64,000 nt of DNA from Parcubacteria group bacterium Gr01-1014_17 (GTDB lineage Bacteria; Patescibacteriota; Minisyncoccia; Phycocordibacterales; UBA10002), in NCBI GenBank assembly GCA_007376285.1, contig VMFZ01000001.1, forward strand, positions 11,033 to 75,032. Reading direction: 5' to 3'. Below are positions 5,012-61,450 of the stretch, in pieces. Under the pieces are notes generated by a model. It worked only from the letters and a program-made list of their open reading frames with translations. It was not told the origin of the DNA and made no database searches. Position 1 is the first letter of the stretch, and the number at the start of each line of letters is the position of its first letter. Both the position numbers and the translations under genes were made by a program.

Positions 5012-8000
5012 TTATTCTTTTTCTTCCACCGCCTCATACGCGGCTTCTTGCGCCGCGCGCCGCGCGGCGCGTTCGTTTTGCATCGCGGTAATGCGCGCGG
5101 TTTTGGGGCTGCCGGGAAAACCAGTGCCTGCGGGAATCAAACGGCCGATAATCACATTTTCCATAAGCCCCTGCAGGCGGTCCACGCTTCCGCGCGAAGC
5201 CGCGCTAATCAAGACGCGCGTCGTGTGCTGGAAAGACGCCGCGGCTAGGAAGTTGCGGCGTGAGAGCGACACTTCCGAAATACCCATCACTGCCGGTTCC
5301 GACTTTGCCTCACTTCCCCCACGCTTCACCACTTCCTCATTTTCCGCATCAAACTCGCGCTGGTCTACTATATCGTTTGCAGAGAAAGTCGTGTCGCCCG
5401 CGTCCTTCACCACAAGCCGCGAGAACATCTGACGGATAATCACTTCAATATGTTTGCGCGATACGCTCTCGCCCTGCAATTCGTACGGTTTTGAAATTTC
5501 CGCAATCAAATATTCCTGAGCGCGCTCCCTGCCTCCATATTTATACAGTTCGTCAATATCAGCTGAGCCGTCGGTCAATAAATCTCCACGCTTAACAATG
5601 CTCCCCACTTTCACTAAAGGCGTGCGACTCATACTGGTTTCATATTCCGCTACTTCGCTTTTTTTACCTTTTGCAGGTGCGTCGGGCATAAACACTATGA
5701 CACGATCTTTTCCGTCTTCTTTTATTTCAATTACCGTACCGTCCTCTGTAGCAATCACCGCTGGAATTTTTGGATGCCGCTTTTCAAACACTTCTTCAAC
5801 GCGCGGAAGCCCTTGCGTAATGTCGCCACCAACTGAGGCGGTACCGCCAGCATGGAAGGTGCGCATCGTCAGCTGGGTGCCCGGCTCGCCGATGGCTTGC
5901 GCCGCAATGGTCCCAACGGCTTCACCAAGAGCAATAATTCCGCCCTTGCCCAAATCCTCGCCGTAACAGCGCGCGCAAATACCGTGTCTTAGCGCACAAC
6001 GCAAGGGCGAGCGCACCCGAACTTCATTCACATGCGCTGCGTCCATAGAAAGGGCGTCTGACTTGGTAAGCAAATGCCCTTTTGAAAAAAGCTTTTCGCC
6101 GTCAGCACCTATAACATCAGCGGAAATCACTCGCCCTCGCGCGCTTTTTGCAAATGAAATCTCCATACCCGATGCGCCACCGCGGCTAATCACGATTGAT
6201 TCTTTGGTGCCACAATCCTCTTCGGTAATCACCGTGTCTTGCGCCACGACAAAAAGCTTGCGCGTCATATAGCCGGCCTTTGCGGTATTGAGCGCCGTGT
6301 CGGTCTGGCCTTTGCGCGCGCCGTGCGTCGTAATGAAATATTCAATCGGGGTGAGTCCTTGCTTCATAGACGACATAATCGGGATTTCAATCGTCTCCCC
6401 AGCCGTGTTCTGAATCAACCCCTTCATACCCACCATCTGCGTAATTTGCGAAAACGAACCGCGGGCGCCGGAATTTACCATGTCGTACACCGAGCCGTCT
6501 TTCGGCAAAGACGCGGGTATCAATTTTTCCACTTCATTTTTCGCCGCGTGCCATATTTCAATATTTTTCCGAATGCGTTCGCCTTCAGAAAGAAGCCCAT
6601 CGCCCCACTCCGAAAACACTCCGTCCGATTTCGCTTTTGCCTTTGCAATTACATCGCTCTTTTTCGCAGGCTCCAACACATCGTCAATACCCCAAGTTAC
6701 ACCCGACTTTGTCGCGTAGGAAAACCCGAACCCTTTTATCGCGTCCAATATTTCAGGGATGCGCGCACTTCCGTAACGCAAGATGAGGTCGTCCACCAGG
6801 GCTGCCATTCTCTTGCGGTCAACTCCTTCGTTAATAAACATATAGTCAGCAGGCAGTATTTCATTAAAGAAAATGCGTCCAGCGGTCGTCTCAAAAAATG
6901 CTCCAGTAAACGCCGCGTATTTCGGCCCTTCCTGCACACGAACTTTGATGGATGCGCGGTGGTCGATAATGTCGTGTTGGAGTGCGGCGATAACCTCTGT
7001 TGAATCGTTAAAATATAAACCGTTACCTCGTGCATTCGGTAATGCTTTTGTCACCCAATATACGCCGAGTATCATATCCAACCTATCTACTGATGCGACC
7101 ACATTACCACTTCCCGGCTTAAAGATATTTTTATCCGCCGCCATAAACTCGCGCGCCTCTAATTGCGCCTCATCCGACAAAGGCACATGCACCGCCATTT
7201 GGTCGCCGTCAAAGTCGGCATTAAACGCAGAACAGACGAGCGGATGTACTTGAATGGCGCTGCCTTCAATCAAGACCGGCTGAAACGCTTGAATGCCGAG
7301 CCTGTGCAAAGTCGGCGCGCGGTTCAATAGTACATATTTGCCGCGCGTGACTTCTTCCAAAATTGCCCACACTTCCGGAATTTGGTCTTCAATAAGCCGC
7401 CCCGCGCCGCGGATGTTGAACGCAAGTTCGCGCTTGATAAGCTCCGAGAGTACGAACGGGCGAAAGAGTTCCAGCGCCATATTTTTCGGCAAGCCGCACT
7501 GGTGGAGCTTGAGCTCCGGACCAACGACAATCACCGAGCGTCCAGAATAATCCACGCGTTTTCCCAAAAGATTTTGGCGGAAGAGACCGCGCTTCCCTTT
7601 CAAATTGTCGGCAAGCGACTTCAACTGGCGGCGCGCCGCCGGCCCTGTGCCGCCAGATGAGCTGTGTCGTATGGAATTATCTATGAGAGAATCAACCGCT
7701 TCCTGCAAAATGCGCTTTTCGTTGCGCAAAATAACTTCCGGCGCGTTTATTTCCTTCAATTTCTTCAAACGGTTGTTGCGGTTGATGACGCGGCGGTACA
7801 AATCGTTCACATCAGAAGTCGCATATCGGCCACCGTCCAAAGGCACCATCGGCCGTAGACCTGGCGGAATCACCGGAATGCGTGAAAGGAACATCCACTC
7901 GGGACGTATATCGGAAGCAATCATGCCACGCACGAGCGCCAAACGACGCGAAAGCCGCTCGCGCTCGCCGGCGCCGGCTTTTTCCTGCGCCGCTTCCAAT

Positions 8001-12263: not shown

Positions 12264-12291
12264 ATACAGACATTTTGCAAAATGTCTGTAT
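12264..12291. promoter_or_regulatory. perfect 28-bp palindrome ATACAGACATTTTGCAAAATGTCTGTAT, copy 1, between arsR stop and the rpoB leader
   Basis: exact inverted repeat read in the sequence; identical copy at 12625-12652. Confidence 0.5.
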
Positions 12292-12325: not shown

Positions 12326-12604
12326 TTAGTTTTCCGACAGTTCTTTGCAGAAAGAGAGCACCGCTTCCGCCCGCTCGGTTATCTTGTGCCGCACCTCTTT
12401 TCCTTGATACCGTTTCAACACCAAACCCGCAATCGCAAGTTTTCGGATGTGGTCGGAAGTATTTTCATAATTTGAATCAAACGCTCTCGCAATTTCTATA
12501 ACGGACAGTTCCGGTTTTTTCTTAAGCAATGCCAAAATTGCTAATCGCCGATGGTTTGCAAAGCCCTTGATAATTCGCTCCAGTGGTCGCCCTTCAATAC
12601 TCAT
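12326..12604 (-). CDS. ArsR/SmtB-family winged-HTH transcriptional regulator
   Basis: 92 aa; HANHRRLAILALL..LSVIEIARAF..NTSDHIRKL HTH signature. Confidence 0.8.
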   Translation of the reverse strand: MSIEGRPLERIIKGFANHRRLAILALLKKKPELSVIEIARAFDSNYENTSDHIRKLAIAGLVLKRYQGKEVRHKITERAEAVLSFCKELSEN

Positions 12605-12624
12605 GTTGTCTTTATCTTACTCTT

Positions 12625-12652
12625 ATACAGACATTTTGCAAAATGTCTGTAT
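12625..12652. promoter_or_regulatory. perfect 28-bp palindrome, copy 2, 21-48 bp upstream of the arsR start (candidate autoregulatory operator)
   Basis: identical to 12264-12291; 12-2-12 architecture typical of ArsR-family operators. Confidence 0.5.
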
Positions 12653-12661
12653 ATACCACAG

Positions 12662-12728
12662 ACACCCGATGTTTGCCGCCTATTCCGCCTCATCGGCGGA
12701 TCGCCGAAAAGGAGACAACATTGGGTGT
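12662..12728. repeat. GC-rich nested palindromic element (family H: ACACCCGATGTTTGCC..CGCCTCATCGGCGG.TCGCCGA..GACAACAT.GGGTGT)
   Basis: long hairpin; family members at 21924, 23229, 31789, 32761, 35328, 37280, 46531, 54121. Confidence 0.7.
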
Positions 12729-18666: not shown

Positions 18667-18860
18667 AGGAGAATGGTGCAGACAGTATGCCTGTTTTTCC
18701 GACAAATGAAAACGCTTGACATAATTTAACTTAACCAATATACTTATATTCCGAAGCAAAAGTATCGCTAAATGCGCTCGACGCGCACGCCGCATGGTTC
18801 GCCCAGCGGCTTTTTTTATTCCCCCCAACCCATTTCTTTTTTTTATTCCTTCTTCTCCAA

Positions 18861-18898
18861 CTATTCCAACTACTTGCTATAGCAGATAAATGGAAGAG
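18861..18898. repeat. 38-bp imperfect palindrome CTATTCCAACTACTTGCTATAGCAG.TAA.TGGAA.AG, copy 1
   Basis: centre TTGCTATAGCAA is a perfect palindrome; copies at 19510-19549 and 37213-37250. Confidence 0.7.
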
Positions 18899-18901
18899 GT
18901 G

Positions 18902-19483: not shown

Positions 19484-19509
19484 TTCTTTTATCTTATTTT
19501 ATTTTGATA

Positions 19510-19549
19510 CCTCTCCCAACTACTTGCTATAGCAAGTAACTGGAATAGG
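19510..19549. repeat. 38-40-bp imperfect palindrome, copy 2, 27 bp upstream of the PaaX-like start
   Basis: CCAACTACTTGCTATAGCAAGTAACTGG. Confidence 0.7.
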
Positions 19550-19571
19550 TCACCATTACACCAATAAGTTG

Positions 19572-20921: not shown

Positions 20922-21902
20922 TCACTTCCCCGCTACCGCCAAATCTAGCACATGTTCCAGAAACTCGGAAAGCGACGAACCGACGGCCGTAAGCGACTTC
21001 GGCAAGAGCGATTCGGGAGTGAGCCCAGGTAGCGTATTTACTTCAAGAAAATACATACCGCGGCGCTGGTGGAGTATAAAGTCAGAACGCGAATAATGGC
21101 GCAAACCGAGCGTTCGGTGGACATGCGCCGCCACCTTCTGCAATTCCGCGCTCTCTTCTGCCGTGAATCTTCCTGGGCAAATTTCTTGCGACTGTCCGCC
21201 GTACTTCGCATCATAATCAAAAAACTGCGAGCCCTCTGCCGGCACAATCTCAATCGGAAGCAAAGAATATAGTTCTTGTCCGCGGAATCCTTCCACCACG
21301 CCGACCGTCGCCTCTTTGCCAACAATATATTCCTCAACGAGCGCCGTGTCGGACACCGCGAACGCGCGCTCCAGCGCATCCGCAATTTCTTGTACGGTGC
21401 GCACGATTGATACGCCAACCGAGGAGCCAAGCCCCACTGGTTTTATAACCGAGGGCTGTGGAAACGAACGATGAAGCGCAACCGCGCTATCCCCCACTGT
21501 ATCTCCACGATACAAAACGCGCCACACTGGAGTTTTCACTCCATATTTCTCAAGCACTGATTTTGCAAACGATTTTTGCATCGCGAGGCGCGATGCAAAC
21601 CTACCCGAGCCGGTGTAGCGCGCGCCGAATGCGTCCAGTATCTCCTGCACACCGCCATCCTCTCCCCACTCCCCATGGAGAGCATTAAATGCAACACCGG
21701 CGTTGCGCAAAATCACTTCTGGTCGGCGCGCAAGCCCATTTTCATACCATACGCCAGCGCGGTCTATAAACACATCAAAGGGCTCAAAGCGCTCGCGCGG
21801 AATGTGCGCGAGCGCCGCGGCGCCGGTTTTAAGCGACACTTCGTATTCAGAAGACGGCCCGCCGCGCAGTACCGCGACGCGTATTTTCTCGCTCTCGTGC
21901 AT
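20922..21902 (-). CDS. ddl: D-alanine--D-alanine ligase
   Basis: IRVAVLRGGPSSEYEVS N-domain and ATP-grasp core; start set at Met21, the first 20 codons of the ORF are palindrome-derived. Confidence 0.88.
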   Translation of the reverse strand: MHESEKIRVAVLRGGPSSEYEVSLKTGAAALAHIPRERFEPFDVFIDRAGVWYENGLARRPEVILRNAGVAFNALHGEWGEDGGVQEILDAFGARYTGSGRFASRLAMQKSFAKSVLEKYGVKTPVWRVLYRGDTVGDSAVALHRSFPQPSVIKPVGLGSSVGVSIVRTVQEIADALERAFAVSDTALVEEYIVGKEATVGVVEGFRGQELYSLLPIEIVPAEGSQFFDYDAKYGGQSQEICPGRFTAEESAELQKVAAHVHRTLGLRHYSRSDFILHQRRGMYFLEVNTLPGLTPESLLPKSLTAVGSSLSEFLEHVLDLAVAGK

Positions 21903-21923
21903 AGCGCCATTATACAAGAAAAA

Positions 21924-21960
21924 GGCACCCGATGTTTGCCGCCTATCAACATCGGGTGCC
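21924..21960. repeat. family-H short palindrome GGCACCCGATGTTTGCCGCCTATCAACATCGGGTGCC in the ddl/MFS divergent region
   Basis: perfect inverted arms read in the sequence. Confidence 0.7.
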
Positions 21961-21984
21961 ATACCGCTATGCTACAATATATAC

Positions 21985-23151
21985 ATGCAGAACACAGTGA
22001 AAAAAGCGGGCGTGTTTTTTCCTTTCTATCTTTTGGCGTTCGTGTTTACGCTCCATGTCGCCTCCCCCGCCTATATCAATTCCACTTTTCTTTCCGGAAA
22101 AATCGGCCAGGGTTCAGTTGGTTTGATTTATGCTGGAGCATCCGCAGTAACTCTTATTGCATTTTTCTTTATCGGCTCGCTTCTCAAAAAGCGCGGCGAC
22201 TACGACTTGACGCTCACATTGATGGCGCTTGACTTTATGGCGACCATCGGGCTCGCCGCGCTCAAACACCCATACGCGATTATCGCCGCATTTGCCGTGA
22301 ACTTCATTACTATTTCCTTGATTGCCTTTGATTTTGATTTGCTTCTTGAGAGCTTTTCCAAAAACAGCCGCACGGGGACACTACGCGGCAACTACCTCAC
22401 GGTCGCAAACTTGGGATGGATCGCGGCTCCGGCGATTGCCGGACTCGCGCTTAAAAACGGCGATTATTGGCGCATCTATCTTATCTCTCTTATATTTTTG
22501 CTCGTCGCTTTCGTCATTTTCAGAAAATTCTTCAGGGGCTTTGAAGACCCCGAGTACAAAGCATTGCCATTTTTCGCTACTTTGCGCGCGATTGTGCGAA
22601 AGCGTAATATCCGGTTGATTTTCGGCGCCTCATTCGTCTTGCAATTTTTCTTCGCGCTTATGGTCATCTACACTCCACTCTACTTGCACGACTACATCGG
22701 CTTCGGCTGGCAAGACATTGGTATTATGTTTTCAATTATGCTTTTGCCCTTCCTTCTTTTGGAAGGGCCGCTCGGAAGAATTGCGGACAAGTGGCTCGGT
22801 GAGAAAGAATTCCTTGCCGCTGGGTTTGTAATCACCGCAGTCGCGACCGCGCTCATTGCATTTCTGCGTGAGCCCTCGTTTATCCTCTGGACGAGCGTGT
22901 TATTCGCGACGCGCGTCGGCGCATCAATGATAGAAGTGATGAGCGAGACCTACTTTTTCAAGAAAATAAGCGCGGGCGACGCGGATGTCGTCGCTTTCTT
23001 CCGCGCCGTGCGACCATCAGCGTATGTCGTCGCGCCTGCATTCGCGGCGCTCTTGCTCTCTTTTATTTCGCTCTCGCACCTATTCCTTGCGCTCGCCGTA
23101 ATCGTACTCGCCGGGCTTGCGTTTACGATTCCACTGAAAGATACTAAGTGA
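21985..23151 (+). CDS. MFS transporter
   Basis: about 12 TM segments. Extended -10 TGCTACAAT lies 7 nt upstream of the ATG, suggesting a leaderless mRNA. The 482-aa ORF upstream part is antisense to ddl. Confidence 0.78.
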   Translation: MQNTVKKAGVFFPFYLLAFVFTLHVASPAYINSTFLSGKIGQGSVGLIYAGASAVTLIAFFFIGSLLKKRGDYDLTLTLMALDFMATIGLAALKHPYAIIAAFAVNFITISLIAFDFDLLLESFSKNSRTGTLRGNYLTVANLGWIAAPAIAGLALKNGDYWRIYLISLIFLLVAFVIFRKFFRGFEDPEYKALPFFATLRAIVRKRNIRLIFGASFVLQFFFALMVIYTPLYLHDYIGFGWQDIGIMFSIMLLPFLLLEGPLGRIADKWLGEKEFLAAGFVITAVATALIAFLREPSFILWTSVLFATRVGASMIEVMSETYFFKKISAGDADVVAFFRAVRPSAYVVAPAFAALLLSFISLSHLFLALAVIVLAGLAFTIPLKDTK

Positions 23152-25384: not shown

Positions 25385-25432
25385 TGAGCGTTCCAGTGCC
25401 GAAACCAGCCGATCTCACAATCGGCTGGTTTT

Positions 25433-30064: not shown

Positions 30065-30129
30065 ACAGAAAGGTATAGCACAGTGTAGAAAAAACACCAG
30101 AGGCGGGATACCACTCTGGTGTTAGTTGT

Positions 30130-31788: not shown

Positions 31789-31856
31789 GACACCCGATGT
31801 CTGCCCGCCCGTACCGAATGGTACATTCGGGCGGGCAATTTAGACATCGGGTGTCG
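31789..31856. repeat. 68-bp palindrome ACACCCGATGTCTGCCCGCCCGTACCGAATGGTACATTCGGGCGGGCA..AGACATCGGGTGT in the dnaX upstream region
   Basis: nested inverted repeats read in the sequence. Confidence 0.7.
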
Positions 31857-31945
31857 GATTACCCCAAAACTTGACAGTGTATTTTTTGCATGTATCATCT
31901 GTAGTAGAACAGTAAAATAATATAGAAACGATGCGAAGGAGTATC

Positions 31946-32383
31946 ATGAGTAATCCGTTTGAGAAAATAAAAGAGAAAAACGCACAGTTTCCGCAAATTC
32001 GCAAACAAGCAGAAGCTCGTTATGACGAACTTGTAATGAGTGTGCTCCGCGAACTCCGAAATGCACTTTATCCTCATAGCCCCACAGTATCTAGTCCAGT
32101 AAGTGGGCTTTTGGGAGTTGGAGGGGATGTGGAGGTTTTTTCTGGATGGCACATTTGTGGATATTTTCCCCAACATCCTGACCCGAGCAAGCCGTGGGAG
32201 AACCCTCCCCGCGGTGTCAATACAGGCGTGTCTGTCTCTTTGATTTTTGACTCAAATAATTGCCCAACCAGCTTTTTGTGTACTATTTCGCAAGACTGGT
32301 TCTATGAACCATCAAAAAGTGGGCGGACGCGCGGTCTAACGCGCCACGAGTTGACTGAAGTTCTTGCACGAATGCATTCCTAG
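31946..32383 (+). CDS. hypothetical protein (145 aa)
   Basis: AGGAG Shine-Dalgarno 8 nt upstream of the ATG; Rho-independent terminator follows. Confidence 0.5.
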   Translation: MSNPFEKIKEKNAQFPQIRKQAEARYDELVMSVLRELRNALYPHSPTVSSPVSGLLGVGGDVEVFSGWHICGYFPQHPDPSKPWENPPRGVNTGVSVSLIFDSNNCPTSFLCTISQDWFYEPSKSGRTRGLTRHELTEVLARMHS

Positions 32384-32401
32384 CTGTGTCATTTAAATCT
32401 T

Positions 32402-32440
32402 CCCGCGACTTGAAATATAGTCGCGGGTTTTCTTTTTTTC
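32402..32440 (+). terminator. Rho-independent terminator CCCGCGACTTGAAATATAGTCGCGGG + TTTTCTTTTTTT
   Basis: perfect 8-bp stem plus T-run. Confidence 0.7.
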
Positions 32441-32830
32441 CGCTTTTATACAAACATTTTGCCCTCCTCATCGGCGGGCAAGCAAAATGACTGGATACAC
32501 TATCTTTGGCGGTCGCAAAGTTTAGTGTATATAGAAAGTTCTACCATACTACAAAGTATGAGAGAAGAAATTAGAGCGAACGAAACTCGTTGAGGCGCGC
32601 AGGTTTGCAAACATGGGTAAGGCACGAAGCGAAATGCTTTTTCAAAATGTCTGGAGCGAGTGGTCGCATTGCAGCGACCCGAGCGTTACCGAGGACTTTT
32701 GTAAAAAGCATTTTGCGGAGTGTCTTCCTTTCAATGCGCGCCGAGAAAGAGTTCTAAGAGACACCAGATGTTTGCCATCTATCCCGCCTCATCGGCGGGT
32801 CGCCGAGGAGGAGACAACATCTGGTGTCAA
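32440..32830. repeat. mosaic repeat island A with four modules: ATTTTGCC..GGCAAAAT hairpin (32456-32488), ACACTATCTTTGGCG..AGTGT (32497-32528), AGAGCGAACGAAACTCGTTGAGGCGCGCAGGTTTG (32573-32607), family-H palindrome (32761-32828)
   Basis: modules shared in the same order and orientation with island B (37100-37530) and partly with 59604-59660. Confidence 0.7.
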
Positions 32831-35316
32831 CTATGCAACTCCTCGGGCGAGAGTTCTACGCGCGAGCCGGGGCGGATTTCGCCGCGCAGGATCTTATCAG
32901 CAATCGCGCGCTCTACGCTGTCGTTTATAGCGCGTTGCATCGCGCGCGCGCCGAATTGCGGGTCGGCACCAGCTTCCGCCACAAAATCAACTAACCGTTG
33001 GGTCGGCACAAACATCACGCCGCGCTCGCTCAAGCGCTTCGCAAGTTTCTGGAGCATAAGAACTGCGACCGCGCGCAAGTTCTTGCCCGTAAGCGGTTGG
33101 AACAAAACCACTCCGTCAAAACGGTTCAGAAGCTCCGGCGTAAAGGACCCGCGTTCCACGAGCGCGTCAGTAATACGCTTCTTTTCGTCCGACAAATCAT
33201 TCCCTTGCCGCACCGCGTTCCAGATAAGGTCGCTCCCTGCGTTTGAAGTCGCGATAATTAAAAGATTCCGGCAATTCACGCGCTTGCCAGCAGCGTCCGT
33301 GAAAAACCCTTCGTCAAGCACCTGCAAAAACAAATGCCGGATTTCCACGGTCGTTTTCTCAAACTCATCCAGAAGCAAAACGCCGTAGGGTTTTTCGCGT
33401 AGAAGCGAAGCAAGCACACCCGGCTTCCCCGCCGTAAACGAACCAATGAGCCGTTCGAGCGCATCCGCGGTCTGGTATTCCGATAAATCAAGCCGATGCG
33501 TCGCATCTTCGCTTCCGAAAAATGAGGATGCGAGCGCTTTTGCGGTTTCTGTTTTGCCGACACCAGTCGGGCCCAAAAAGAGGAACGAGCCAAACGGGCG
33601 ATTCGGGTTCGCAATCCCAGAACGCGCGCGGCGCAAAGCCGCCGCGACAGTTGCAAGCGCCTCGTCTTGCCCAACCACGCGCGCGCGAAGCGCGCTTTCA
33701 AGCGTAAGGAGCGTCGCGCGTTCGGATTCCTTAAGCGCCCCGACTGGTACTCCCGTTCGCTTTTCAACCACCGACAAAACATCTGAAGGGAGTACCGCAA
33801 TCCGTTTCGCCTTTTTCACGGCGCTCGCGGCTTCGTACAATACATCAACTGCTTTATCCAAAAGCGATTCGCCCATAAAATATCGCGCGCTTGCTTTCAC
33901 CGCCGCTTCAACTGCCGGAAAGGTGAAAAACAATTTGCTTCCCGCCTCAATCCGCACCGCTTCGTCTTCAAGGTACGGCAACACTGCGCGTTCGTCTGGC
34001 GCCGGTACCAAAATCCGCTCAAAGCGCTTCATCAGTTCCGCATTTGGTTCAATGGTGCGATGAAAAGCGCCGGTCTCCGCAAGCGCAATGAGCTGAATGC
34101 GCGTGGATGCGAGAAACTCGTCCAAAAGGCGCCCAGCATCGCTCCCAAGTGTCGCTGCGCTTTCTAAAAACGCCGGAAAATCCGGAAGCACGACAATCAA
34201 ATTACCCGCCGATTCAATTTCTTTAAACAAACGGAGTAGCTCGCTTTCAAACGCAATTTTTGTCTTTGTTTCTGCGATAAAAGAATTTGTGTCAAAAAGT
34301 ATAAGCCGTTTATGCTCTAATTGCGGAAGCACGGAGCCATCCCGAATGCGTGAGAGAACAAACGCAATGGCAGCTTCGCGCGGAGAACCAGCATCACCCA
34401 CCAAAAGCGCGTTCGCCTCGCGTACGCGAGAAAGCACCGCTTCCGCTTGTTCTCCGGCGCCCGCCGCAAGGAGCGCTTCTGCGGAAGACACGCGCGCAAA
34501 CGCAGGGATTTGCGCAATATCCTTGCCGTAACGCGACAATCGCCACGCCGAGCCGTACGCCCAGTCCTTGCCGATGCCTTGAATCCTCCCCAGCCGTTCG
34601 CGACCCAATGCGCGTGCCCCGCGGCGCATATTTACCAAGCAGCGCTCCACCCACCCAGCTGCTTCGGCTGCGACTCCTGCAGATACGCTCTGTTCAGCAA
34701 GAAAAAGCGCAGCATCTTGGTCAACAGAAAAAATTGCCATTACGATGTCAGAAAGAGAAATGGGCGCGCCGTTCCGCGCTGAAACAGAAAGCGAATCCGA
34801 TGTAAGAGAGTGCCGCGGTTTATTTACAAACGCGCGCACTGCCGCACTGGAAATGCCGAGCCGCAAGAAAATCTGCTTGCCTAAAAAACTCTTGGAAAAG
34901 CTTCTGAATATATCCGCACCGGAAATCTCCGACACTGAAACAGCCGCGTCAAAAGAAATAAGAAGCGGTTCTCTTTTCCAAAACGGTTCGCGGAGCAAGA
35001 GCGGAAACCCGCGGCACGCGGAAGAGTAGTAGCAGGCATTCACAGAAAACAACGCAAGATACAGCGCAAGCGCAATATAAAATAAACCAGGAACGAACTG
35101 GAGCAGTGCGAGAAGTCCTGAGGAAACAGAAAGACGCTCCGCAAACGAGGGGCTCGCGGTGAAGATTGAAAATAGAAGTGCACCGCACAGAAAGATAACA
35201 ACAAGAAAGCCAAGTGAGCGCGCAAGCCGCAACCGTTTCGGCAAGGGCAGAAACCGTTCAATCAAAACCCCCAACTTAAAAACTGAAGTAGATTGTTGTA
35301 GTTCTTGAAATGTCAT
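32827..35316 (-). CDS. membrane-anchored ClpA/ClpB-family AAA+ ATPase with degenerate D1 and intact D2
   Basis: N-terminal about 100 aa with 2 TM helices; D1 keeps only its C-terminal half (no Walker A); D2 has Walker A GPTGVGKT, Walker B LLLDEFEK and a sensor-2 region. Family-H palindromes flank both ends of the gene. Confidence 0.7.
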   Translation of the reverse strand: MTFQELQQSTSVFKLGVLIERFLPLPKRLRLARSLGFLVVIFLCGALLFSIFTASPSFAERLSVSSGLLALLQFVPGLFYIALALYLALFSVNACYYSSACRGFPLLLREPFWKREPLLISFDAAVSVSEISGADIFRSFSKSFLGKQIFLRLGISSAAVRAFVNKPRHSLTSDSLSVSARNGAPISLSDIVMAIFSVDQDAALFLAEQSVSAGVAAEAAGWVERCLVNMRRGARALGRERLGRIQGIGKDWAYGSAWRLSRYGKDIAQIPAFARVSSAEALLAAGAGEQAEAVLSRVREANALLVGDAGSPREAAIAFVLSRIRDGSVLPQLEHKRLILFDTNSFIAETKTKIAFESELLRLFKEIESAGNLIVVLPDFPAFLESAATLGSDAGRLLDEFLASTRIQLIALAETGAFHRTIEPNAELMKRFERILVPAPDERAVLPYLEDEAVRIEAGSKLFFTFPAVEAAVKASARYFMGESLLDKAVDVLYEAASAVKKAKRIAVLPSDVLSVVEKRTGVPVGALKESERATLLTLESALRARVVGQDEALATVAAALRRARSGIANPNRPFGSFLFLGPTGVGKTETAKALASSFFGSEDATHRLDLSEYQTADALERLIGSFTAGKPGVLASLLREKPYGVLLLDEFEKTTVEIRHLFLQVLDEGFFTDAAGKRVNCRNLLIIATSNAGSDLIWNAVRQGNDLSDEKKRITDALVERGSFTPELLNRFDGVVLFQPLTGKNLRAVAVLMLQKLAKRLSERGVMFVPTQRLVDFVAEAGADPQFGARAMQRAINDSVERAIADKILRGEIRPGSRVELSPEELHS

Positions 35317-35327
35317 ATTTATTCTCT

Positions 35328-35396
35328 GGCGCCCGATGTTTGCCGCCTATCCCGCCTCATCGGCGGGTCGCCGAGGAGGAGACAACATCGGGTGCC
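35328..35396. repeat. family-H palindrome immediately upstream of the ClpA/B-like start codon
   Basis: GGCGCCCGATGTTTGCCGCCTATCCCGCCTCATCGGCGGGTCGCCGAGGAGGAGACAACATCGGGTGCC. Confidence 0.7.
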
Positions 35397-37099: not shown

Positions 37100-37530
37100 A
37101 TTCTCACGAATTAGTCCATACAAGTATTTTGCCCGCCTCATCGGCGGACAGGCAAAATACTGAAATACACTATCTTTGGCGACCTCTAGAGATAGTATGG
37201 GTATTCGCCTGACTATTCCAACTACTTGCTATAGCAGTTAATTGGAATAGTGAATAGTAATAGTGATAAAAATCACGGAGGCACCAGATGTCTAAATTGC
37301 AGACATCTGGTGCCGAAAAAAGAGCGAGCAAACTCGTTGAGGCGCGCAGGTTTGAGACGCCCTTGCGCAATCTGAAAACACGAAAGCGAGGAAGTACCTA
37401 TGCCGAGACGGCGAGGAGGCGAACGGCCATGGACTCCCGAGCGAAGCGAGGGAGGAGTGAGCCGAGCGGATAAGGCAAAATTCCTCGGAGGGGAATTTTG
37501 CCGGTCTCGGCAGAGGTAGCTTCCGAGCGC
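37100..37530. repeat. mosaic repeat island B: ATTTTGCC hairpin (37126-37158), ACACTATCT element (37167-37197), PaaX-type palindrome copy 3 (37213-37250), GGCACCAGATGTCT hairpin (37280-37314), AGAGCGAGCAAACTCGTTGAGGCGCGCAGGTTTG (37321-37354), GGCAAAATTCCTCGGAGGGGAATTTTGCC hairpin (37474-37502)
   Basis: direct-repeat partner of island A. Confidence 0.7.
37288..37473 (+). CDS. putative 61-aa highly basic small protein (weak resemblance to the ribosomal protein S21 C-terminal half)
   Basis: GGAGG 8 nt upstream of an ATG that lies inside the hairpin arm; K/R-rich; a decayed fragment of the same ORF occurs in island A. Confidence 0.3.
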   Translation: MSKLQTSGAEKRASKLVEARRFETPLRNLKTRKRGSTYAETARRRTAMDSRAKRGRSEPSG

Positions 37531-38701
37531 TATTTTATTTCCCCCTTCCCCAAATACGGCACCAGCACGGGTGGAACGACGATACTTCCGTCTGCGCGCT
37601 GGTTGTTTTCCAACAAAGAAATCAGAAGGCGTGGCGTAGGCGCGGCGGTGCAATTCAGTGAATGCGCGAACTTTTGTTTTCCGTCCTTTTCTTTGTAACG
37701 AATGTTAAGTCGCCGCGTTTGAAAATCGTGGAAGTATGAGGCAGAACTTATTTCCCGATATCGCTTTTCTGATGGCACCCACAGGTTAATATCATATTTT
37801 TTCACTTGTCCGAGCCCGAGGTCTCCGCCGCAATTAGTAACCGTCTGGTACGGAATACCGAGCGCTTCCATAAACTCCTCTTCGTTGCGATTCATTTCTT
37901 CATGAAAGCGCACTGAGGTCTGGTGGCTCGCTTCGCAAAGCACTACTTGTTCACATTTAAAGAATTCATGCACGCGCATCAAGCCCTTCGTATCTTTGCC
38001 GTGGCTCCCCGCCTCACGCCGGAAACAAGGCGAGAACGCGATGAGCTTTTTTGGGAGTTCTTCCGCAGAAAACATGCTGTCCGCGAAATACGACATCACC
38101 GGCACTTCGGCAGTGCCTGCAAGATAATCGCCGTCCTGTGTTTTATACAAATCGTCTTCGCCCTGCGGAAGGTAACCGGTGCCGAGAAGCGCTTCGCGCC
38201 GAACGAGAGAAGGCGCCAGCATTGGCGAAAAACCTTTCTTCACAAAGAAATCAAAACAAAACTTCCAAAGCGCGAATGATAAAAGCGCGCCATCGTTTTT
38301 CAGAAAGTACCCGCGGAAACCAGATACCGCCGCGCCGCGCTCAAAATTCGCCATATCGTTTTTCAAAAGCAAATCAATATGGCTTTTCGGTTCAAAAGCA
38401 AACGCTGGCTTCTCGCCCCAACTTCGCACTTCGGCATTGTCCGCATCGCTTCCTCCTTCCGGTACGGAAATATCGGGCACATTCGGCACTTGGAGCATCA
38501 GTGTCTGCCATTGTTGCGTCGCTTTTTTCAGACGCCGCTTTTGCGATTCTGCTCCGCGCGCTTGTTTTCAACAACCGTGAGAAGTGCGCGGCGCTCGTCG
38601 TCTACGGCAATAAGTTCTTCCACTTTGAAATCGACGCACTTCTTCCGCGCCGCCTCGGCAACAAGTTCTTTGTTTTCTCGGATGAATTTTATATCCAACA
38701 T
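37530..38701 (-). pseudogene. serS: serine--tRNA ligase gene interrupted by a +1/-1 frameshift at an A6 tract (N-terminal 57 codons 38528-38701; catalytic part 37530-38498)
   Basis: N-fragment MLDIKFIRENKELV...AEQNRKSGV* matches the SerRS N-terminus, and the 322-aa ORF is the class II catalytic core starting near VPNVPD. Frames differ by 1 nt around GTCTGAAAAAAGCG. Confidence 0.8.
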
Positions 38702-42144: not shown

Positions 42145-42416
42145 TTACTTTTTCCGCCTCCTCGGCGGGTCGCCTTTGAGGCGATTTTGCGCGGCTTTGC
42201 GGCGGTTTTCGCCATTTTTGTCTTAAAGCGCTCCACGCGGCCCGCCGTGTCTACAATCTTTTCGGCACCCGTATAGAATGGGTGGCAGTTGCCGCAAATT
42301 TCAACTTGTAATTCCGGCTGTGTTGAGCCCACAGCAAAAACCGCGCCGCAGGCGCACGAAACCTTCGCTGACGGATAGTATTTTGGGTGGATTTCTTTTT
42401 TCACGAATAAAATCAT
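42135..42416 (-). CDS. rpmE: 50S ribosomal protein L31 with a repeat-encoded C-terminal extension
   Basis: [24 protein letters not shown] zinc-ribbon bL31 core. The last about 25 aa include palindrome 42154-42183 translated in frame; the stop overlaps the prfA start. Confidence 0.85.
42154..42183. repeat. palindrome CCGCCTCCTCGGCGGGTCGCCTTTGAGGCG inside the rpmE 3' coding region (encodes ..[11 protein letters not shown]..)
   Basis: same CGCCTCATCGGCGGGTCGCCGA..GGCG core as copies at 46663, 50324 and 56879. Confidence 0.7.
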
Positions 42417-46512: not shown

Positions 46513-46592
46513 GCAAAAAGTGAAAAACCTCCCCGATGTTGATAGGCGGCAAACATCGGGGAGGTTTTTTCTTGGGCTAGAAAAAGGCGCGC

Positions 46593-46662: not shown

Positions 46663-46695
46663 GTCGCCTCATCGGCGGGTCGCCGAAGAGGCGAC
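46663..46695. repeat. palindrome GTCGCCTCATCGGCGGGTCGCCGAAGAGGCGAC in the SPFH-A 5' UTR
   Basis: same family as 42154, 50324 and 56879. Confidence 0.7.
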
Positions 46696-50288: not shown

Positions 50289-50385
50289 CCTACACAGAGT
50301 TAGACCTTTGACAAAAGACAACTGTCGCCTCATCGGCGACCCGCCGAAGAGGCGGGAACAAAACTGAAAGAACGGAAAAATTGTT

Positions 50386-52993: not shown

Positions 52994-53395
52994 TCAGGGA
53001 AGCCTCGGCACGATTGGGATATCGCCAGGGTTTAGGTGAATAAATGGACTACCGGGTAAGAAAAAGGTGTTGCGCACAAGATTTACTAACCCCCAAACGC
53101 TAAACATCACAAACATACCGATAACGGCATAAATCATATAACTGCGCGCCGCCGCCTGTTTTTCTTCATTGTCGGCTTTGAGGACATACTGGATAATTCC
53201 CCAGAAGAACCAAATGAGCGCCAAAGCGCCGACGATAAAACTGACTAAACTCAGAAGGTCTAGCAATATAAGAACAATGTTGCCGAGCGGGGTTCGCGCC
53301 GCAGGGTTGAGCAAGAGTTGAGTGCGAAGCGGTTGCGCGAATACAAAGAGAGGTAGAATAAATAACAAAAAAGAAGAAAAGATAAATTTTTTCAT
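52994..53395 (-). CDS. VirB2/TrbC-like pilin-family protein P4
   Basis: KADNEEKQAAARSYMIYAVIGMF loop between two helices; start at MKKFIF. Confidence 0.55.
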   Translation of the reverse strand: MKKFIFSSFLLFILPLFVFAQPLRTQLLLNPAARTPLGNIVLILLDLLSLVSFIVGALALIWFFWGIIQYVLKADNEEKQAAARSYMIYAVIGMFVMFSVWGLVNLVRNTFFLPGSPFIHLNPGDIPIVPRLP

Positions 53396-53399
53396 ATAT

Positions 53400-53720
53400 T
53401 TAATTGCAGTTGCCGGGGCCAAGCAAGCTTAAACAAATAATTTTGGCTGCGCCCCAATACACCAATAACGCCGCAAGACCGAGAACTCCGAAAAGCGCCG
53501 TTTGTTTGAACGCGCTCATTTTTTTCTCATCTCCACCGCCTCCCGCTCCGATATATCCGGCTATTTTTGCAAATACGACAAACCAAGCAAGAATGAGAAT
53601 GGCAAAAAGCGCCACATTAATATGGTCCAGCGTTAAATTAATCAACCCTTTAAAATCGGTTGGTGCGGCGAGGGCAAAAGATGGGGCAAATGCAAGAAGT
53701 GTTGGAAATAATTTCTTCAT
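53400..53720 (-). CDS. VirB2/TrbC-like pilin-family protein P3
   Basis: signal peptide MKKLFPTLLAFAPSFALA; GAGGGGDEKKMSAFKQTALFGVLG. Confidence 0.55.
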   Translation of the reverse strand: MKKLFPTLLAFAPSFALAAPTDFKGLINLTLDHINVALFAILILAWFVVFAKIAGYIGAGGGGDEKKMSAFKQTALFGVLGLAALLVYWGAAKIICLSLLGPGNCN

Positions 53721-53721: not shown

Positions 53722-54102
53722 TTATTTCAACGAATTGATAGTGGTTTCCAAGATTGTTGCAAGCGCTTGCGCACCAAGCAATATCGCCGTGCCGATGACT
53801 GCGTATAAAATCGCTTTTTTTGCATCTTTGTGCTTTTCTTCGTTGCCGCCAGCGGTCACAAACAAAAATCCAGCGTAAATAATGAAAAATACTGCGACCA
53901 CGCCACCTATATCGGAAACAATCACGAGTATCTTCGCCGCAAGCGCTTGAAAGGTTGTGGTTGCACCGAGTGGGTTTGGTAAGGTGGTTAAACCCCCACC
54001 GGTAACTCCAGTACCTCCTCCGGTAACGCCTGTGTGTTGTGTAGCGGACGCCTCTCCAGCGGAAAGCAGAAACCCTATTATTACCCAAAATGTCTTTTGC
54101 AT
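53722..54102 (-). CDS. VirB2/TrbC-like pilin-family protein P2 (Gly/Thr-rich N-region)
   Basis: TAGGNEEKHKDAKKAILYAVIGTA loop motif; start at Met58; family-H palindrome 54121-54158 in the 5' UTR. Confidence 0.55.
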   Translation of the reverse strand: MQKTFWVIIGFLLSAGEASATQHTGVTGGGTGVTGGGLTTLPNPLGATTTFQALAAKILVIVSDIGGVVAVFFIIYAGFLFVTAGGNEEKHKDAKKAILYAVIGTAILLGAQALATILETTINSLK

Positions 54103-54176
54103 AGTGTTAAGTATATCACGAGGAGGCACCAGATGTTTGCCGCCTATCAACATCTGGTGCCACTTCCCTACCACAA

Positions 54177-54578
54177 TCAACCCCCAAGAAAAGAGAAGGC
54201 ACTTGGAACACCGAGTCCAATCAAAATCAATTTGACAATAAGCCATGCAGAAAGCATCCAGACAAAACCCCATACGACTGGCATAAACATTCCGCGTCCT
54301 TTTTCCATTTTGGATTCATTGCCCCCTGCGGTCAAAATGAGAAACCCGGCATAGGCAAACACCAGCGCGGCAATTGAACCGCCAATCATAATCAGAAAGT
54401 TAATGATATTATTGATGCCGATGATGAAGTGGCGAAATTCGCAGGGGTTTGAGATCTCTTCGTACGAACCAGTCGCACCAGTTACAGTCCGTGTCTCCGT
54501 TCCGCACGGCACGATTGGGGCGGCGTGGGCAAAGATAGGTAAAATCACAAAAATAGAAATTAGTGCGAGTATATACAT
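54177..54578 (-). CDS. VirB2/TrbC-like pilin-family protein P1
   Basis: TAGGNESKMEKGRGMF loop motif between helices; start at Met32, because the ORF's N-terminal 31 aa are a translation of repeat R1. Confidence 0.55.
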   Translation of the reverse strand: MYILALISIFVILPIFAHAAPIVPCGTETRTVTGATGSYEEISNPCEFRHFIIGINNIINFLIMIGGSIAALVFAYAGFLILTAGGNESKMEKGRGMFMPVVWGFVWMLSAWLIVKLILIGLGVPSAFSFLGG

Positions 54579-54660
54579 CCTCCGTCTCCCTACGGGAGAC
54601 ACCTCCCTCAAGGGAGGATTTTCTTTACTCCCCCTTTGAAGGGGGGTTGGGGGGATGTGA
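54578..54660. repeat. triple-hairpin GC repeat R1 (GTCTCCC..GGGAGAC / CCTCCCTCAAGGGAGG / CCCCCTTTGAAGGGGGG + TTGGGGGGATGT)
   Basis: about 85 nt; near-identical copies R2 (63303-63385) and R3 (63760-63850, inside a CDS). Confidence 0.75.
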
Positions 54661-54667
54661 TTTTTAT

Positions 54668-55948
54668 TCATCTTAATAATCTCTCTAACCCGCTCCGCAG
54701 GTCGCCGACGCCATTAGTAAGCTGTCCTCTACCGCCGGTAATATCTTCAACGACCGACTGGAATAATTTGGTCGTTTCGGTCGGATTCGGGTCAAGGAAA
54801 CTCCGCGCCTGTAAGGCCGCTTCGTAAAACACCGATTTCGCCGCGCTCTCTTGCTTGCGCTCTAAAAGCGCGCGGAGCGGCGGCACGGTGCCGAGTGCAT
54901 TGGCTAAGGTAACCGACCTTTGAGAATCCGCGAGTGCAAACCCGAGTCGTATCGCTCCGCCCGGATTTTTTCCGGTTTTCAGCGCAGCCAACCCCCATGT
55001 TTTGCCGAACGAAACCGTGAGCTTTGAATCCCGCGTCTGCGGAAACGGCGTTGCCGACATATTCAAATGCGGATTTTTCTCGCGAAGCCCTGCATATTCC
55101 GACGCAAAGCCGAAATAAAGCGCGAGGTCTCCAGACGCAAACATATTGTGCGATTGTGGAAGCCCGCGGTTCCAGGTGTAAAGCTTTTTTACTGGGTTCG
55201 CAAACTCCGTGAAAAACCCGAGTGCGCTTCCAGCATTTGCCCAGTCCTCAAGCGAAACCGCGAATCCTTCCGTTCCGCCCGCCTGTACGGGCAGGCGCGA
55301 AACAAGCTTGCCGCCGCTTTGGAAAAAGAGCGCCGAGAGAATCTCTTTTGCATTGGTAATGTTCCGAAATTCTCCAAGCGACACCGCCGCGCTCTGAATT
55401 TGCCCCAGCCGGTTGCGCACGACAAGCCGCGGCGTACCGGTAATCAATTCATCCCAATAGCGCGGCGGTCGCGCAATGTTTGCCGCACCAAACCGGTCGC
55501 GATTCCAATATGCGACCAGCGGGTCTACCGTAAGAGGGACCGCGATGGCTCCAGTTGTGCTCAAAAACACTTCTGCAGCTTCTACAAACGAGTCCTTAAA
55601 CTTCCGCTCCGAAAGCGTATCTAAAGGAATCGGCACAATTTTGTCGCCATGCCGCACCACGAGGTCGGATGGTAAAATAATTGCATCAGGACCTCTCCCT
55701 GCCGCGAGCGCTTCTATAAACTCCTGCTCAAACTTGTCTGCGCGAATCTCAGTGTATGTAAGCTTAAAATCATCTCCAGAAAAATCTGCTGTCGCGGTGG
55801 AAAACGCAGAACTCGGAAACGAGCCCCATACATCAAGCACCGCTGGTCCGCCACCCGCGGGCGTGCCTTTGAAAAGAGAAAAAGCAACCAGACCGCCAAT
55901 GGCGGCTATCACAAAAACAGCGAGCAAAATTATTTGAAATGGTCTCAT
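54668..55948 (-). CDS. membrane-anchored extracellular solute-binding protein (ABC-type SBP family 1-like)
   Basis: N-terminal TM anchor, 426 aa, two-lobe SBP-like composition; no specific substrate assignable. Confidence 0.55.
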   Translation of the reverse strand: MRPFQIILLAVFVIAAIGGLVAFSLFKGTPAGGGPAVLDVWGSFPSSAFSTATADFSGDDFKLTYTEIRADKFEQEFIEALAAGRGPDAIILPSDLVVRHGDKIVPIPLDTLSERKFKDSFVEAAEVFLSTTGAIAVPLTVDPLVAYWNRDRFGAANIARPPRYWDELITGTPRLVVRNRLGQIQSAAVSLGEFRNITNAKEILSALFFQSGGKLVSRLPVQAGGTEGFAVSLEDWANAGSALGFFTEFANPVKKLYTWNRGLPQSHNMFASGDLALYFGFASEYAGLREKNPHLNMSATPFPQTRDSKLTVSFGKTWGLAALKTGKNPGGAIRLGFALADSQRSVTLANALGTVPPLRALLERKQESAAKSVFYEAALQARSFLDPNPTETTKLFQSVVEDITGGRGQLTNGVGDLRSGLERLLR

Positions 55949-60769: not shown

Positions 60770-61159
60770 TTATTTCGTGCATCCGCCCTGCGTACATACA
60801 ATAGTCACAGTGGGAGTCTCACCTGTCGCATTTATGGAAAAACTGCCATCTGCTGCACTGGTATCTTGACCTCCACTTCCGTATGTCCAACCAGAAGGCA
60901 AAGCACCGTATTTCGTTAAACTACCGTCGCCACTTGCGCATATTGATGCGTTTACCACTGGTGAAGCTAAGTCAATTCCATCATTTGCGCACAACTGCAT
61001 TGCGGTAAGCATATTGCGCATACTGGACTGCGCCGCCGCAATGCGTGCGTTTTTCCGCTGTGGTCCAAGCGCCGCGAGCACGACCGTCGCCAACAAGCCG
61101 ATAATCGCAATGACCACCAAAAGTTCAATAAGTGTAAAACCTTTACGCATTCTTTTCAT
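60770..61159 (-). CDS. type IV pilin / pseudopilin (prepilin with class III leader)
   Basis: MKRMRKG|FTLIELLVVIAIIGLLA prepilin peptidase cleavage and N-methylation motif with Glu+5. Confidence 0.8.
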   Translation of the reverse strand: MKRMRKGFTLIELLVVIAIIGLLATVVLAALGPQRKNARIAAAQSSMRNMLTAMQLCANDGIDLASPVVNASICASGDGSLTKYGALPSGWTYGSGGQDTSAADGSFSINATGETPTVTIVCTQGGCTK

Positions 61160-61189
61160 ATATGTTTTTAAAAAGATAATAAACAATTA

Positions 61190-61396: not shown

Positions 61397-61450
61397 AGCG
61401 GTATTCTAACACCCGATGTTCCAGGACTGCAAACATTGGGTGTTTATAAC

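Follow-up and report, generated by a model that had tools for sequence, protein, structure and literature searches.

What is one small palindrome doing, again and again, between the genes of a genome this dense? Genomes of Parcubacteria, within the candidate phyla radiation (CPR), measure about 1 Mb and are thought to be repeat-poor. In the window, a 64-kb stretch of Parcubacteria group bacterium Gr01-1014_17 of which about 91% is open reading frame (ORF), the palindrome that we call family H nevertheless sits in roughly one spacer in six. The initial annotation took it for a mobile hairpin with a built-in Shine-Dalgarno (SD) sequence and ATG. We find a dispersed, structured family of the REP (repetitive extragenic palindrome) or MITE (a miniature transposable element with inverted repeats) kind, present in independent assemblies, covarying in its stem and polymorphic in its insertions, as had been proposed. 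In our view family H is probably a non-autonomous selfish hairpin, of the type of REPs and of Rickettsia palindromic elements (RPE), that multiplied in a CPR clade of Parcubacteria. The start-donating module, on the other hand, did not survive scrutiny.

The hairpin and its copies in the window

How many copies are there, and could they be chance? The arm 12-mer GGCACCMGATGT, with at most one mismatch, occurs at 15 half-sites in the window where 0.39 are expected, and 0 of 100 dinucleotide shuffles reach 15. Every one of these half-sites is an arm of an inverted pair, with no singletons at all; the one extra match to the 9-mer core, at 33777, is isolated and due to chance. Site reading and a fuzzy-arm search give ten copies: the nine reported initially, all found again within 0-4 nt of their first positions, and a tenth at 61408-61444. 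All ten are predicted to fold strongly (RNA z-scores of -4 to -10; DNA free energies of -15 to -31 kcal/mol). A covariance model built on 53 short copies from the window and its relatives recovers all six short forms of the window at 38-64 bits and detects the long forms solely via their inner stems; its other matches are ordinary terminators and the doubtful site 30089. The tenth copy is returned by the covariance model as well as by the fuzzy-arm search. The window features are these:

12661..12728, unstranded: long form, loop A with a nested X hairpin (12685-12716)
21924..21960, unstranded: short form, loop A (TGCCGCCTATC), perfect 13-bp stem, 63.8 bits
23229..23263, unstranded: short form, loop B (CTGCAATTTAG), with TTTTAT after it on the + strand
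31789..31855, unstranded: long form, loop B split after TGC by the GC-rich palindrome Y (31805-31835)
31856..32759, + strand: cargo between two family H copies
32760..32828, unstranded: long form A with nested X (32784-32815)
35328..35396, unstranded: long form A with nested X (35352-35383), one G-T mispair
37280..37314, unstranded: short form, loop B reversed (CTAAATTGCAG), whose flank ..GGA yields GGAGG
46528..46564, unstranded: short form, loop A inverted, 53.8 bits
54125..54161, unstranded: short form, loop A, the second GGAGG-flanked copy
61408..61444, unstranded: short form, AACACCCGATGTT-CCAGGACTGCA-AACATTGGGTGTT, one G-T mispair, 38 bits, E 6e-8
30089..30127, unstranded: possible distant relative, AACACCAGAG...CTCTGGTGTT, 21 bits, E 0.002

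Membership of the last is uncertain: it has the outer arm alone, without the GATGTY core. Copy 12661 is decaying, with arms GACACCCGATGTT/AACATTGGGTGTT and two G-T mispairs. In copy 46528 the outer arms are variant (CCTCCCCGATGTT), a complementary CCTCCCC/GGGGAGG having replaced the usual sequence, and the stem extends to 46522-46570.

The unit, 35-37 nt long, is a single hairpin: a 13-bp stem, G[GA]CACC[AC]GATGTY/RACATC[GT]GGTG[CT]C, closes a loop of 7-11 nt, and the 13-nt arm contains no palindrome of its own. Loop types are few. Loop C (TGAAGCCCATC) is clearly related to loop A, and loop B (TGCAATTTA) adds one stem pair; all three are seen in both orientations, whichever way the upstream gene points (9 sense, 8 antisense).

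The four long forms (12661, 31789, 32760 and 35328) are short forms whose loop holds another small palindrome. Their interior had been described as CGCCTCATCGGCGGGTCGCCGAGGAGGAGACA, which fits 12661, 32760 and 35328 and fails for 31789, where the palindrome is a different, GC-rich one. The first three share the identical insert CCGCCTCATCGGCGGGTCGCCGAGGAGGAGAC at the identical junction, a degenerate copy of a separate mini-hairpin family X (GTCGCCTCATCGGCGGGTCGCCGAAGAGGCGAC). Palindrome Y stands after TGC of the B loop in window copy 31789 and after TGC of an A loop at L048:5988 (L-numbers denote loci retrieved from other assemblies and metagenomes). The shared insert and junction, and the presence of Y in family H loops, indicate that the composites formed by nesting and, once formed, were copied whole.

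Families X and Y also have lives of their own. Free-standing X copies, of stem-bulge-stem form, lie upstream of genes at 42154-42185, 46664-46695 (+) and 50324-50355 (-), and another (56879-56910, +) is in frame within the C-terminal domain of GyrA, where the L055 ortholog is 7 residues shorter. Y (CCGCCCG..loop..CGGGCGG) occurs at 31805-31835 in the window and at L048:6004-6025, L032:4070-4097 and L068:418-449, always inserted after GC within another repeat, be it an H loop (after TGC) or a structured repeat of about 140 nt (after CGGC). Other elements seem to be the target of this hairpin.

Is the stem conserved as a pairing structure? Its absence on alignment had been named beforehand as what would count against the family, and what the alignment gave is strong compensatory covariation. 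Of the cells of the 13-bp helix in the 53 short copies, 98.7% are paired, a percentage inflated by a local search that allowed at most two arm mismatches. Seven of the 13 pairs have changed on both sides (pair 2 is GC in 26 copies, AU in 24 and CG in 2; pair 7 is CG in 33 and AU in 20). Five are invariant, namely the inner GATGT/ACATC core and one C-G pair. The inner stem half (C-N-GATGTY / RACATC-N-G) is fixed, and the outer half varies by paired changes only. None of 500 shuffles equals the covariation score, sliding the partner abolishes it, and four flanking positions pair at chance level. At two polymorphic pairs there are 0 mismatches in 53 copies; the search pattern had left two polymorphic arm positions free, so complementarity there was not imposed. 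G-U occupies 2 of 689 helix cells and is no commoner than other mispairs. This near-absence points to a DNA palindrome, Watson-Crick on both strands, or to one arm templating the other, and not to an RNA helix selected on one strand.

Might the arms instead be sequence-specific sites on duplex DNA that only by chance stand in inverted pairs, such as signals for DNA uptake or segregation, or the operators of a global regulator? In favour, the sequence of the inner stem does not vary, DprA and pilin genes in the lineage make natural competence plausible, and the uptake sequences of Neisseria and Haemophilus often stand as inverted pairs after genes. But the two half-sites of a copy never differ in allele, which argues against independent protein half-sites, and their spacing runs from 11 to 45 nt across the window copies; some copies even lie in frame within genes. 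We consider such sites very unlikely. A DNA uptake signal of the DUS/USS kind was rejected, because all 15 half-sites are paired and abundant single sites are lacking.

Spread, gain and loss among relatives

Had the copies been limited to the window, or been assembly duplications, the case for a family would have collapsed; neither is so. We scanned 185,579 species genomes (596 Gb) for the two arms with a free gap of 11-41 nt, and of the 65 loci returned about 35 carry family H arms with loops A, B or C. They belong to at least 10 assemblies from different studies. Apart from the metagenome-assembled genome (MAG) of the window itself, these are MHSA01 (labelled Taylorbacteria), CAYIUC, CAYORD, CAYJWA, CAYJSB and CAYTVT (Saccharibacteria), JAUYPY ('bacterium'), and two with odd bins, CAYJVA (Gammaproteobacteria; L042 and L044) and CAYSCV (Methanosarcinales; contig CAYSCV010000079, which is L048). 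Many carrier loci share synteny with the window, their flanking genes being 70-84% identical in nucleotide sequence (79-84% for L048, which matches the rpoB-lysS region), and this synteny indicates that the carriers form one clade regardless of label, the odd labels being errors of binning or naming. L048, L044 and L042 are almost certainly mis-binned Parcubacteria contigs. The closest named relatives of LysRS and MurD are from Taylorbacteria, Parcubacteria and Paceibacterota; the 'Saccharibacteria' labels of the third-party annotation (TPA) records clash with the Parcubacteria and Taylorbacteria names of the closest named proteins.

An artefact of assembly or binning, or a set of chance palindromes, would be the most trivial explanation. 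The contigs do come from short-read MAGs, and some loci are plainly mis-binned, L048 among them. Yet the elements sit in syntenic but diverged contexts of independent assemblies made by many studies and assemblers, chance is excluded by the excess of half-sites, and repeats break contigs rather than arise from them. In fact, the Logan contig L001, an independent assembly of the same sample, ends inside copies 32760 and 35328, on both sides of the Clp-like ATPase gene (clp), as expected of a genomic repeat. We give an artefact next to no credence.

Outside the CPR, scan matches in Actinomycetota, Gemmatimonas, Planctomycetota and Anaerolineales were rejected as members: their interiors differ, they have an extra GGTGYCAG flank, and some 20 chance hairpin matches are expected in 596 Gb. 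Several of these non-CPR loci (L012, L022, L008 (JBCDFR), L023, L027, L039 and L026; Actinomycetota, Acidimicrobiia, Gemmatimonas, Planctomycetota) have the 12-nt arm of family H after GGTGYCAG, e.g. TCAGGTGCCAGGCACCAGATGTCG, around variable interiors of 33-38 nt, and may be an unrelated cross-phylum family or a coincidence. Viral contigs scanned with the arm pattern gave just 2 single-strand chance matches; family H is not phage-borne. At the gathering threshold of Rfam 15 three tRNAs pass and nothing else, and no match up to E = 5 overlaps a copy. In the searchable literature on repeats in Saccharibacteria, CPR, Patescibacteria and Parcubacteria we found no description of such an element, and family H, suspected from the start to be a new class, appears to be undescribed so far in the CPR.

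Do the copies come and go? The insertion polymorphism that a mobile element should leave is there, with copies present and absent at orthologous sites of relatives. The clearest case surrounds clp. In the metagenome relatives L067 and L068, whose Clp-like protein is 76-77% identical to that of the window, 21 nt separate the dnaX start from the clp stop; in the window 1.04 kb (segment 31789-32828) lies there, and the ends of this segment match, within about 3 nt, the outer ends of copies 31789 (left) and 32760 (right). The cargo holds a 145-aa ORFan gene (31946-32383), equipped with a TTGACA/TATCAT promoter and a hairpin-plus-T terminator of its own, and behind it other repeat modules. This gene is the one that had been read as 'pilin P2', with a hairpin in its 5' untranslated region; it has no pilin signature and no Pfam match. 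Its protein is identical to one of the Gr01-1014_17 MAG itself; the sole homologue, 41% identical, is in L070, with no family H hairpins nearby. The true pilin-type genes of the window lie elsewhere, at 60770-61186 (N_methyl) and at 52994-53422 and 54177-54671 (both T4SS_pilin).

The other end of clp tells the same story. L067 and L068 have no copy at the 5' site, and there the clp ATG and the stop of a 153-aa gene share bases (ATGA). In the window a long form of 69 nt stands there, along with a new stop; in L028 it is a short C-type copy, its loop flipped. Copy 23229 is absent from the orthologous site in L038, and at the 37280 site L028 has merely ..CCCCGATGCGCCGAAAAAGAGC.. / CCCCGATG|CGCC, which is either the relic of a copy or an unfilled site. 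The reverse is seen in L016, where a copy separates the genes for S41 peptidase and L9, which overlap (ATGA) in the window. Copy 21924 has its ortholog at L038:1348, where the loop is unchanged and two pairs of the stem differ by compensatory changes, and 12661 is orthologous to a short form at L066:2196 and to the Y-nested form at L048:5988. Density varies as well: loci fetched by lysS, and hence unbiased for the element, have 1 copy per 8.6 kb (decayed), 1 per 17 kb and 0 per 35 kb, compared with 10 per 64 kb in the window, which was not so picked. Such filled and empty sites and differing densities show that family H is dynamic on the timescale separating these genomes.

Two further loci deserve a mention. 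Between two family H copies, the variable segment L048:1687-5988 holds two restriction-modification (RM) systems (an N6/N4 methylase with a PD-(D/E)XK protein, and an EcoO109I-type endonuclease with its methylase) where the window has a small helix-turn-helix (HTH) block. As general markers of cassettes, hairpin pairs were rejected, since the genes between them are mostly housekeeping (EF-Tu, LeuRS, transketolase, deformylase). And L056:1265-1385 is another small element, with 12-bp terminal inverted repeats (TIRs; CCCGTTAGAAAC...GTTTCTAACGGG), exactly at the S41-peptidase/L9 junction and with ATGAA duplicated on both sides.

In relatives the hairpin also enters genes. Through seven of about 62 copies there the reading frame stays open, and Pfam domains flank them on either side:

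MurD: in-frame copy, peptide LTPDVPRRQTSGV
Tgt: in-frame copy, peptide RHPMFPGGKHRVP
ArgRS, DALR domain: in-frame copy, peptide DTRCWGLQTSGV
a second aminoacyl-tRNA synthetase, anticodon-binding domain: in-frame copy
transketolase, inter-domain linker: in-frame copy, peptide TPDVGGDKHRVS
Fmt: in-frame copy
UvrD/PD-(D/E)XK helicase: in-frame copy

Such copies, 36-39 nt long, encode 12-13 residues (for example TPDVPRRQTSGV and TPDVGGFKHRVS). The MurD insert is absent from 24 of 26 homologues (58-67% identity), and one further homologue has a decayed look-alike at the same loop of the protein. Variants of 36 nt, that is 12 codons, are genic in 4 of 6 cases, as against 3 of 56 for the 35- and 37-nt forms (Fisher p = 0.0009). 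A role as terminator or regulator cannot explain copies within essential coding sequence; by analogy with the Rickettsia elements, in-frame insertion is a classic mark of selfish palindromic DNA.

Gene ends, terminators and start codons

All ten copies of the window lie outside genes, and six stand 0-16 nt past the stop of an incoming gene. Copy 32760 overlaps it; 35328 fills the spacer 3 nt from the stop of the 153-aa gene and 11 nt from the clp start; 23229 lies 78 nt past the MFS ORF, and 3 nt from it is the stop of a gene (-) for a conserved 27-aa membrane peptide; 61408 comes 7 nt after the end of a 2-hydroxyacid dehydrogenase gene, 222 nt upstream of a gene for type IV pilin; 54125 is 16 nt beyond the stop of a T4SS-pilin-like gene (54177-54671); and 46528 is the sixth. 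Two more occupy divergent promoter regions, 31789 and 21924, the latter between ddl and the MFS gene, about 10-12 nt off each -10 box. Copy 12661 has the stop of lysS (12888) on one side and, on the other, the start (12604) of a gene for an ArsR-like HTH protein. The boundary positions first noticed at both ends of clp, in the ddl/MFS divergent region and upstream of dnaX are therefore real, and, taking all loci together, a stop codon is no more than 28 nt away from about 22 of the 53 copies.

Does the host keep them there? The hairpins could be factor-dependent or bidirectional terminators, stabilisers of mRNA 3' ends or processing sites, selected at gene ends as REPs secondarily are in E. 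coli and kept alike by gene conversion. The crowding near stops fits such a function; a palindrome gives an equal RNA stem on either strand, so that it could work regardless of orientation; some sites have been kept across about 25% divergence; and copies 23229 and 46528 resemble classical terminators. In fact 46528, flanked by an A-run and a T-run, looks like a bidirectional one. Of the terminator role first assigned to family H, however, this pair is what stands in the window: 23229 (+) and 46528 alone have a T-rich 3' flank facing the incoming gene, and the rest lack a usable T-run. Over all loci a T-rich tail follows just 3 of 23 stop-proximal copies, and ordinary hairpin-plus-T terminators are present elsewhere in the window, e.g. 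at 25400 and 12209. Terminator donation is thus occasional at best. Copy 21924, between divergent promoters, is probably transcribed by neither gene, seven copies are inside coding sequences of essential genes, and relatives with the same genes have 0 copies in 35 kb. The scarcity of G-U is unlike RNA-selected helices, and structure alone leaves the conserved stem sequence and loop types unexplained. We hold a host function to be unlikely as the reason for the family.

Landing beside genes does leave traces. The terminal GA of copy 32760 completes the TGA stop of clp, whose product ends in EELHS* in the window, as against EELH* in L067/L068 and EELR* in L028, neither of which has the element at that site.

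What of the built-in SD and ATG, through which the element was supposed to donate translation starts and to create or re-head ORFs? The string GGAGGCACCAGATG is present at 37280 and 54125, where mechanical ORFs of 61 and 73 codons begin at the ATG, and the long ORF tracks of ddl and dnaX traverse copies. But the string occurs at these two copies only, owing to a flanking GGA, and of 111 arm boundaries viewed in the window and its relatives 3 show GGAGG, each time requiring that chance flank. The arm ATG lies mid-stem, buried in a 13-bp helix of -24 to -28 kcal/mol, and no conserved gene begins at one. The start of ddl, said to fall in the element, dissolves on inspection: the ORF track takes its ATG from a flanking AT plus the element's first G (21962) and then runs across the hairpin, and the true start, 28 nt downstream, is MHESEKIRVAVL (MHESEKIRV), matching MTENEKIRVAVL (MTENEKIRV) in L038, where the upstream frame is closed; Pfam coordinates agree. 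By homology and Pfam coordinates dnaX, too, starts downstream of its hairpin. As for the 61-aa ORF claimed from the ATG at 37288, it passes through other repeat modules, lacks its start in L028 and is not conserved. At 54125 the ortholog L055:2019 has no SD (...ctctcGACACC), a flipped loop and the other arm allele.

Several of the surrounding genes seem to do without an SD anyway. For ddl, the MFS gene and the gene downstream of 54125 we observe a TATAAT/TGnTACAAT-like -10 box 6-7 nt before the ATG and no SD (21961-22020, 21880-21923, 54088-54124), which suggests, from the sequence, that leaderless mRNAs are common in this organism. If so, an SD donor would be still less relevant. We regard a start-donating element as highly improbable, and would caution that SD-ATG strings inside palindromes are not to be read as translation signals.

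A proposed hairpin-directed mechanism and its known counterparts

How, then, might a selfish hairpin of the REP/RPE type spread? Part of the answer can be read off the genomes. Whole units, loop included, have been copied to unrelated sites in either orientation; composites with an X or Y hairpin in the loop have been copied onward as composites; and copies have been gained and lost between related genomes. They land mainly a few bases past stops or between tightly packed, even overlapping, genes and, in relatives, in frame in loops and linkers of essential proteins. The remainder we envision as follows. The stem would be extruded as a single-stranded DNA hairpin and recognised by an enzyme acting in trans, most likely a transposase of the HUH/Y1 type like RAYT or the TnpA of IS200, since enzymes of this kind act on hairpins and leave no target duplications (PMC3337134); none was found in the sequence searched. 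Template switching or correction from arm to arm would keep the palindrome perfect. Such quasipalindrome correction turns single changes into paired ones. Two copies might also carry the cargo between them. Effects on expression would be by-products of the landing site, such as termination where a T-run follows, the stop codon at 32760 or the uncoupling of the 153-aa gene from clp, and an SD-ATG function would not exist.

Several observations sit uneasily with a selfish element. Pfam finds no Y1/HUH, DDE or recombinase domain in about 55 ORFs of the window, nor any transposase or recombinase in 25 locus ORFs. With IS608 TnpA and E. coli RAYT as seeds, tblastn gave chance matches only in the window and L001-L070 (about 0.5 Mb of genome fragments); weak matches in L012 and L026 proved to be a membrane protein and a protease-like ORF and were rejected. 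A regular target duplication is not seen, the longest word shared by the flanks averaging 4.04 nt against a null of 3.83 +/- 0.13. At L051:1668 and L016:1560 there are direct repeats of 10-12 nt, set back 7-15 nt from the stem, which fit neither a simple IS200-like/Y1 nor a DDE mechanism. Some sites are filled across about 25% divergence and differ by compensatory arm alleles alone (21924 and L038:1348), a pattern that purifying selection for host function or gene conversion would explain as well as re-insertion. We saw no recent event between near-identical strains and no excision product; hairpin-bounded cargo amounts to one clean case and a looser one (L048); and the covariation sample was drawn by searches demanding near-complementary arms.

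A bolder reading, which we entertain but doubt, is that the CPR have a system of single-strand DNA transposition for which the 13-bp hairpin serves as the structure that marks the ends for recognition. Such a system would move anything between two arms and seed inserts of 12-13 residues into essential proteins. Its payloads could, just as tentatively, be the 11-nt loop, the loop bearing a mini-hairpin, and gene cassettes (the ORFan cassette of 31789-32828 and the RM island of L048). Were this true, hairpins would be a main route of gene gain and of protein-loop evolution in minimal genomes. An integron attC site, by contrast, was rejected: neither an array nor intI is present, the flanks are housekeeping genes, and the GTT/AAC core order is the reverse of R''/R'.

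The selfish, non-autonomous hairpin that we favour has several known counterparts. Like the REPs and REPINs of Enterobacteria and Pseudomonas (PMC3337134, PMC3116915), palindromes of about 20-40 nt, family H exists in many copies, mostly after genes and in either orientation, without regular target duplication. Both cluster with other repeat modules in the manner of BIME mosaics, persist for long at some sites while varying between relatives, and occasionally act at terminators or mRNA ends. The mobile unit of a REPIN, however, is a doublet of two inverted REPs, each an imperfect palindrome, with a spacer between (PMC3337134), whereas family H is a single perfect 13-bp hairpin and has no singlet arms. 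It occurs in frame in genes of relatives, while REPs are extragenic; its stem sequence is common to several species or genera, not species-specific; its host is a CPR bacterium of about 1 Mb, in which such repeats have not been described; and no RAYT was found for it in the genome fragments searched. Beside the REP hairpin there is reportedly a GTAG tetranucleotide head; family H lacks one, and its flanks are not conserved, position -1 being A or C.

The likeness to RPEs (PMC10969869) is of another sort: these, too, are found both in the spaces between genes and, in frame, within housekeeping genes of unrelated kinds, where loops and linkers tolerate them; they have no known transposase and inhabit the reduced genomes of host-dependent bacteria. 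RPEs measure about 100-150 bp and encode a conserved 30-50 residues (PMC10969869); genic family H copies are a quarter of that length, with no sequence relationship and with a near-perfect, sequence-conserved stem and nested composites. Family H behaves like REP/REPIN and RPE yet departs from each in defining traits.

MITEs such as Neisseria Correia, ERIC and RUP share with family H a non-autonomous nature, inverted-repeat ends and insertion polymorphism, and they can alter neighbouring expression through promoters, terminators or processing sites. Perfect 13-bp arms give family H the terminal inverted repeats expected of a MITE. Unlike MITEs, which span 50-500 bp, have TIRs matching a parent insertion sequence (IS) and make a fixed short duplication (TA in Correia), family H is far smaller and leaves no regular duplication, and no transposase of a parent IS was found in the window or the sampled locus genes. 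Intrinsic terminators, finally, are also GC-rich hairpins just past stops, and two window copies have their T-run. Most family H copies do not, some are in promoter regions and genes, and their sequence, not structure alone, is conserved over hundreds of kilobases and across genomes.

Family H would inform how selfish DNA survives extreme streamlining, as it splits overlapping genes, supplies a stop codon and lengthens MurD, Tgt and ArgRS. It is also a practical marker that breaks short-read assemblies, as in L001, and exposes mis-binned contigs. If the mobilising enzyme were found, the small, sharp substrate (a 13-bp stem and a free loop) would make an attractive minimal system for hairpin-directed transposition.

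The neighbourhood offers a few minor observations. The Clp-like ATPase (32827-35316) has Pfam matches for the second AAA module and the D2-small domain only; its N-terminal half is very divergent, and the N-terminus is unlike that of L028. A structured repeat of about 140-160 nt, with closing stem TACCTATGCCGAGAC/GTCTCGGCAGAGGTA, lies at 37380-37540, is multi-copy in genomes, often adjoins family H and has no Rfam match; it recurs at L005:2210-2365, L010:7766-7857, L028:4519-, L032:3915-3993 and L073:~5390-5420, and could be another repeat family or a small RNA. Identical perfect palindromes of 28-30 bp, TATACAGACATTTTGCAAAATGTCTGTATA, flank the ArsR-like HTH gene (12326-12604) at 12264-12291 and 12624-12653 and are probably its operators; in L048, L073 and L074 this block is swapped for other content. 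Further intergenic repeat modules lie at 18858-18901, 19509-19550 and 37212-37251, at 32567-32610 and 37315-37360, and at 32619-32726; they include ACTATTCCAACTACTTGCTA/TAGCAGTTAATTGGAATAGT, AGAGCGAGCAAACTCGTTGAGGCGCGCAGGTTTG and an inverted repeat with 33-nt arms, shared with L048 and L073. In this small genome the spacers are repeat mosaics that recall BIMEs or NIMEs.

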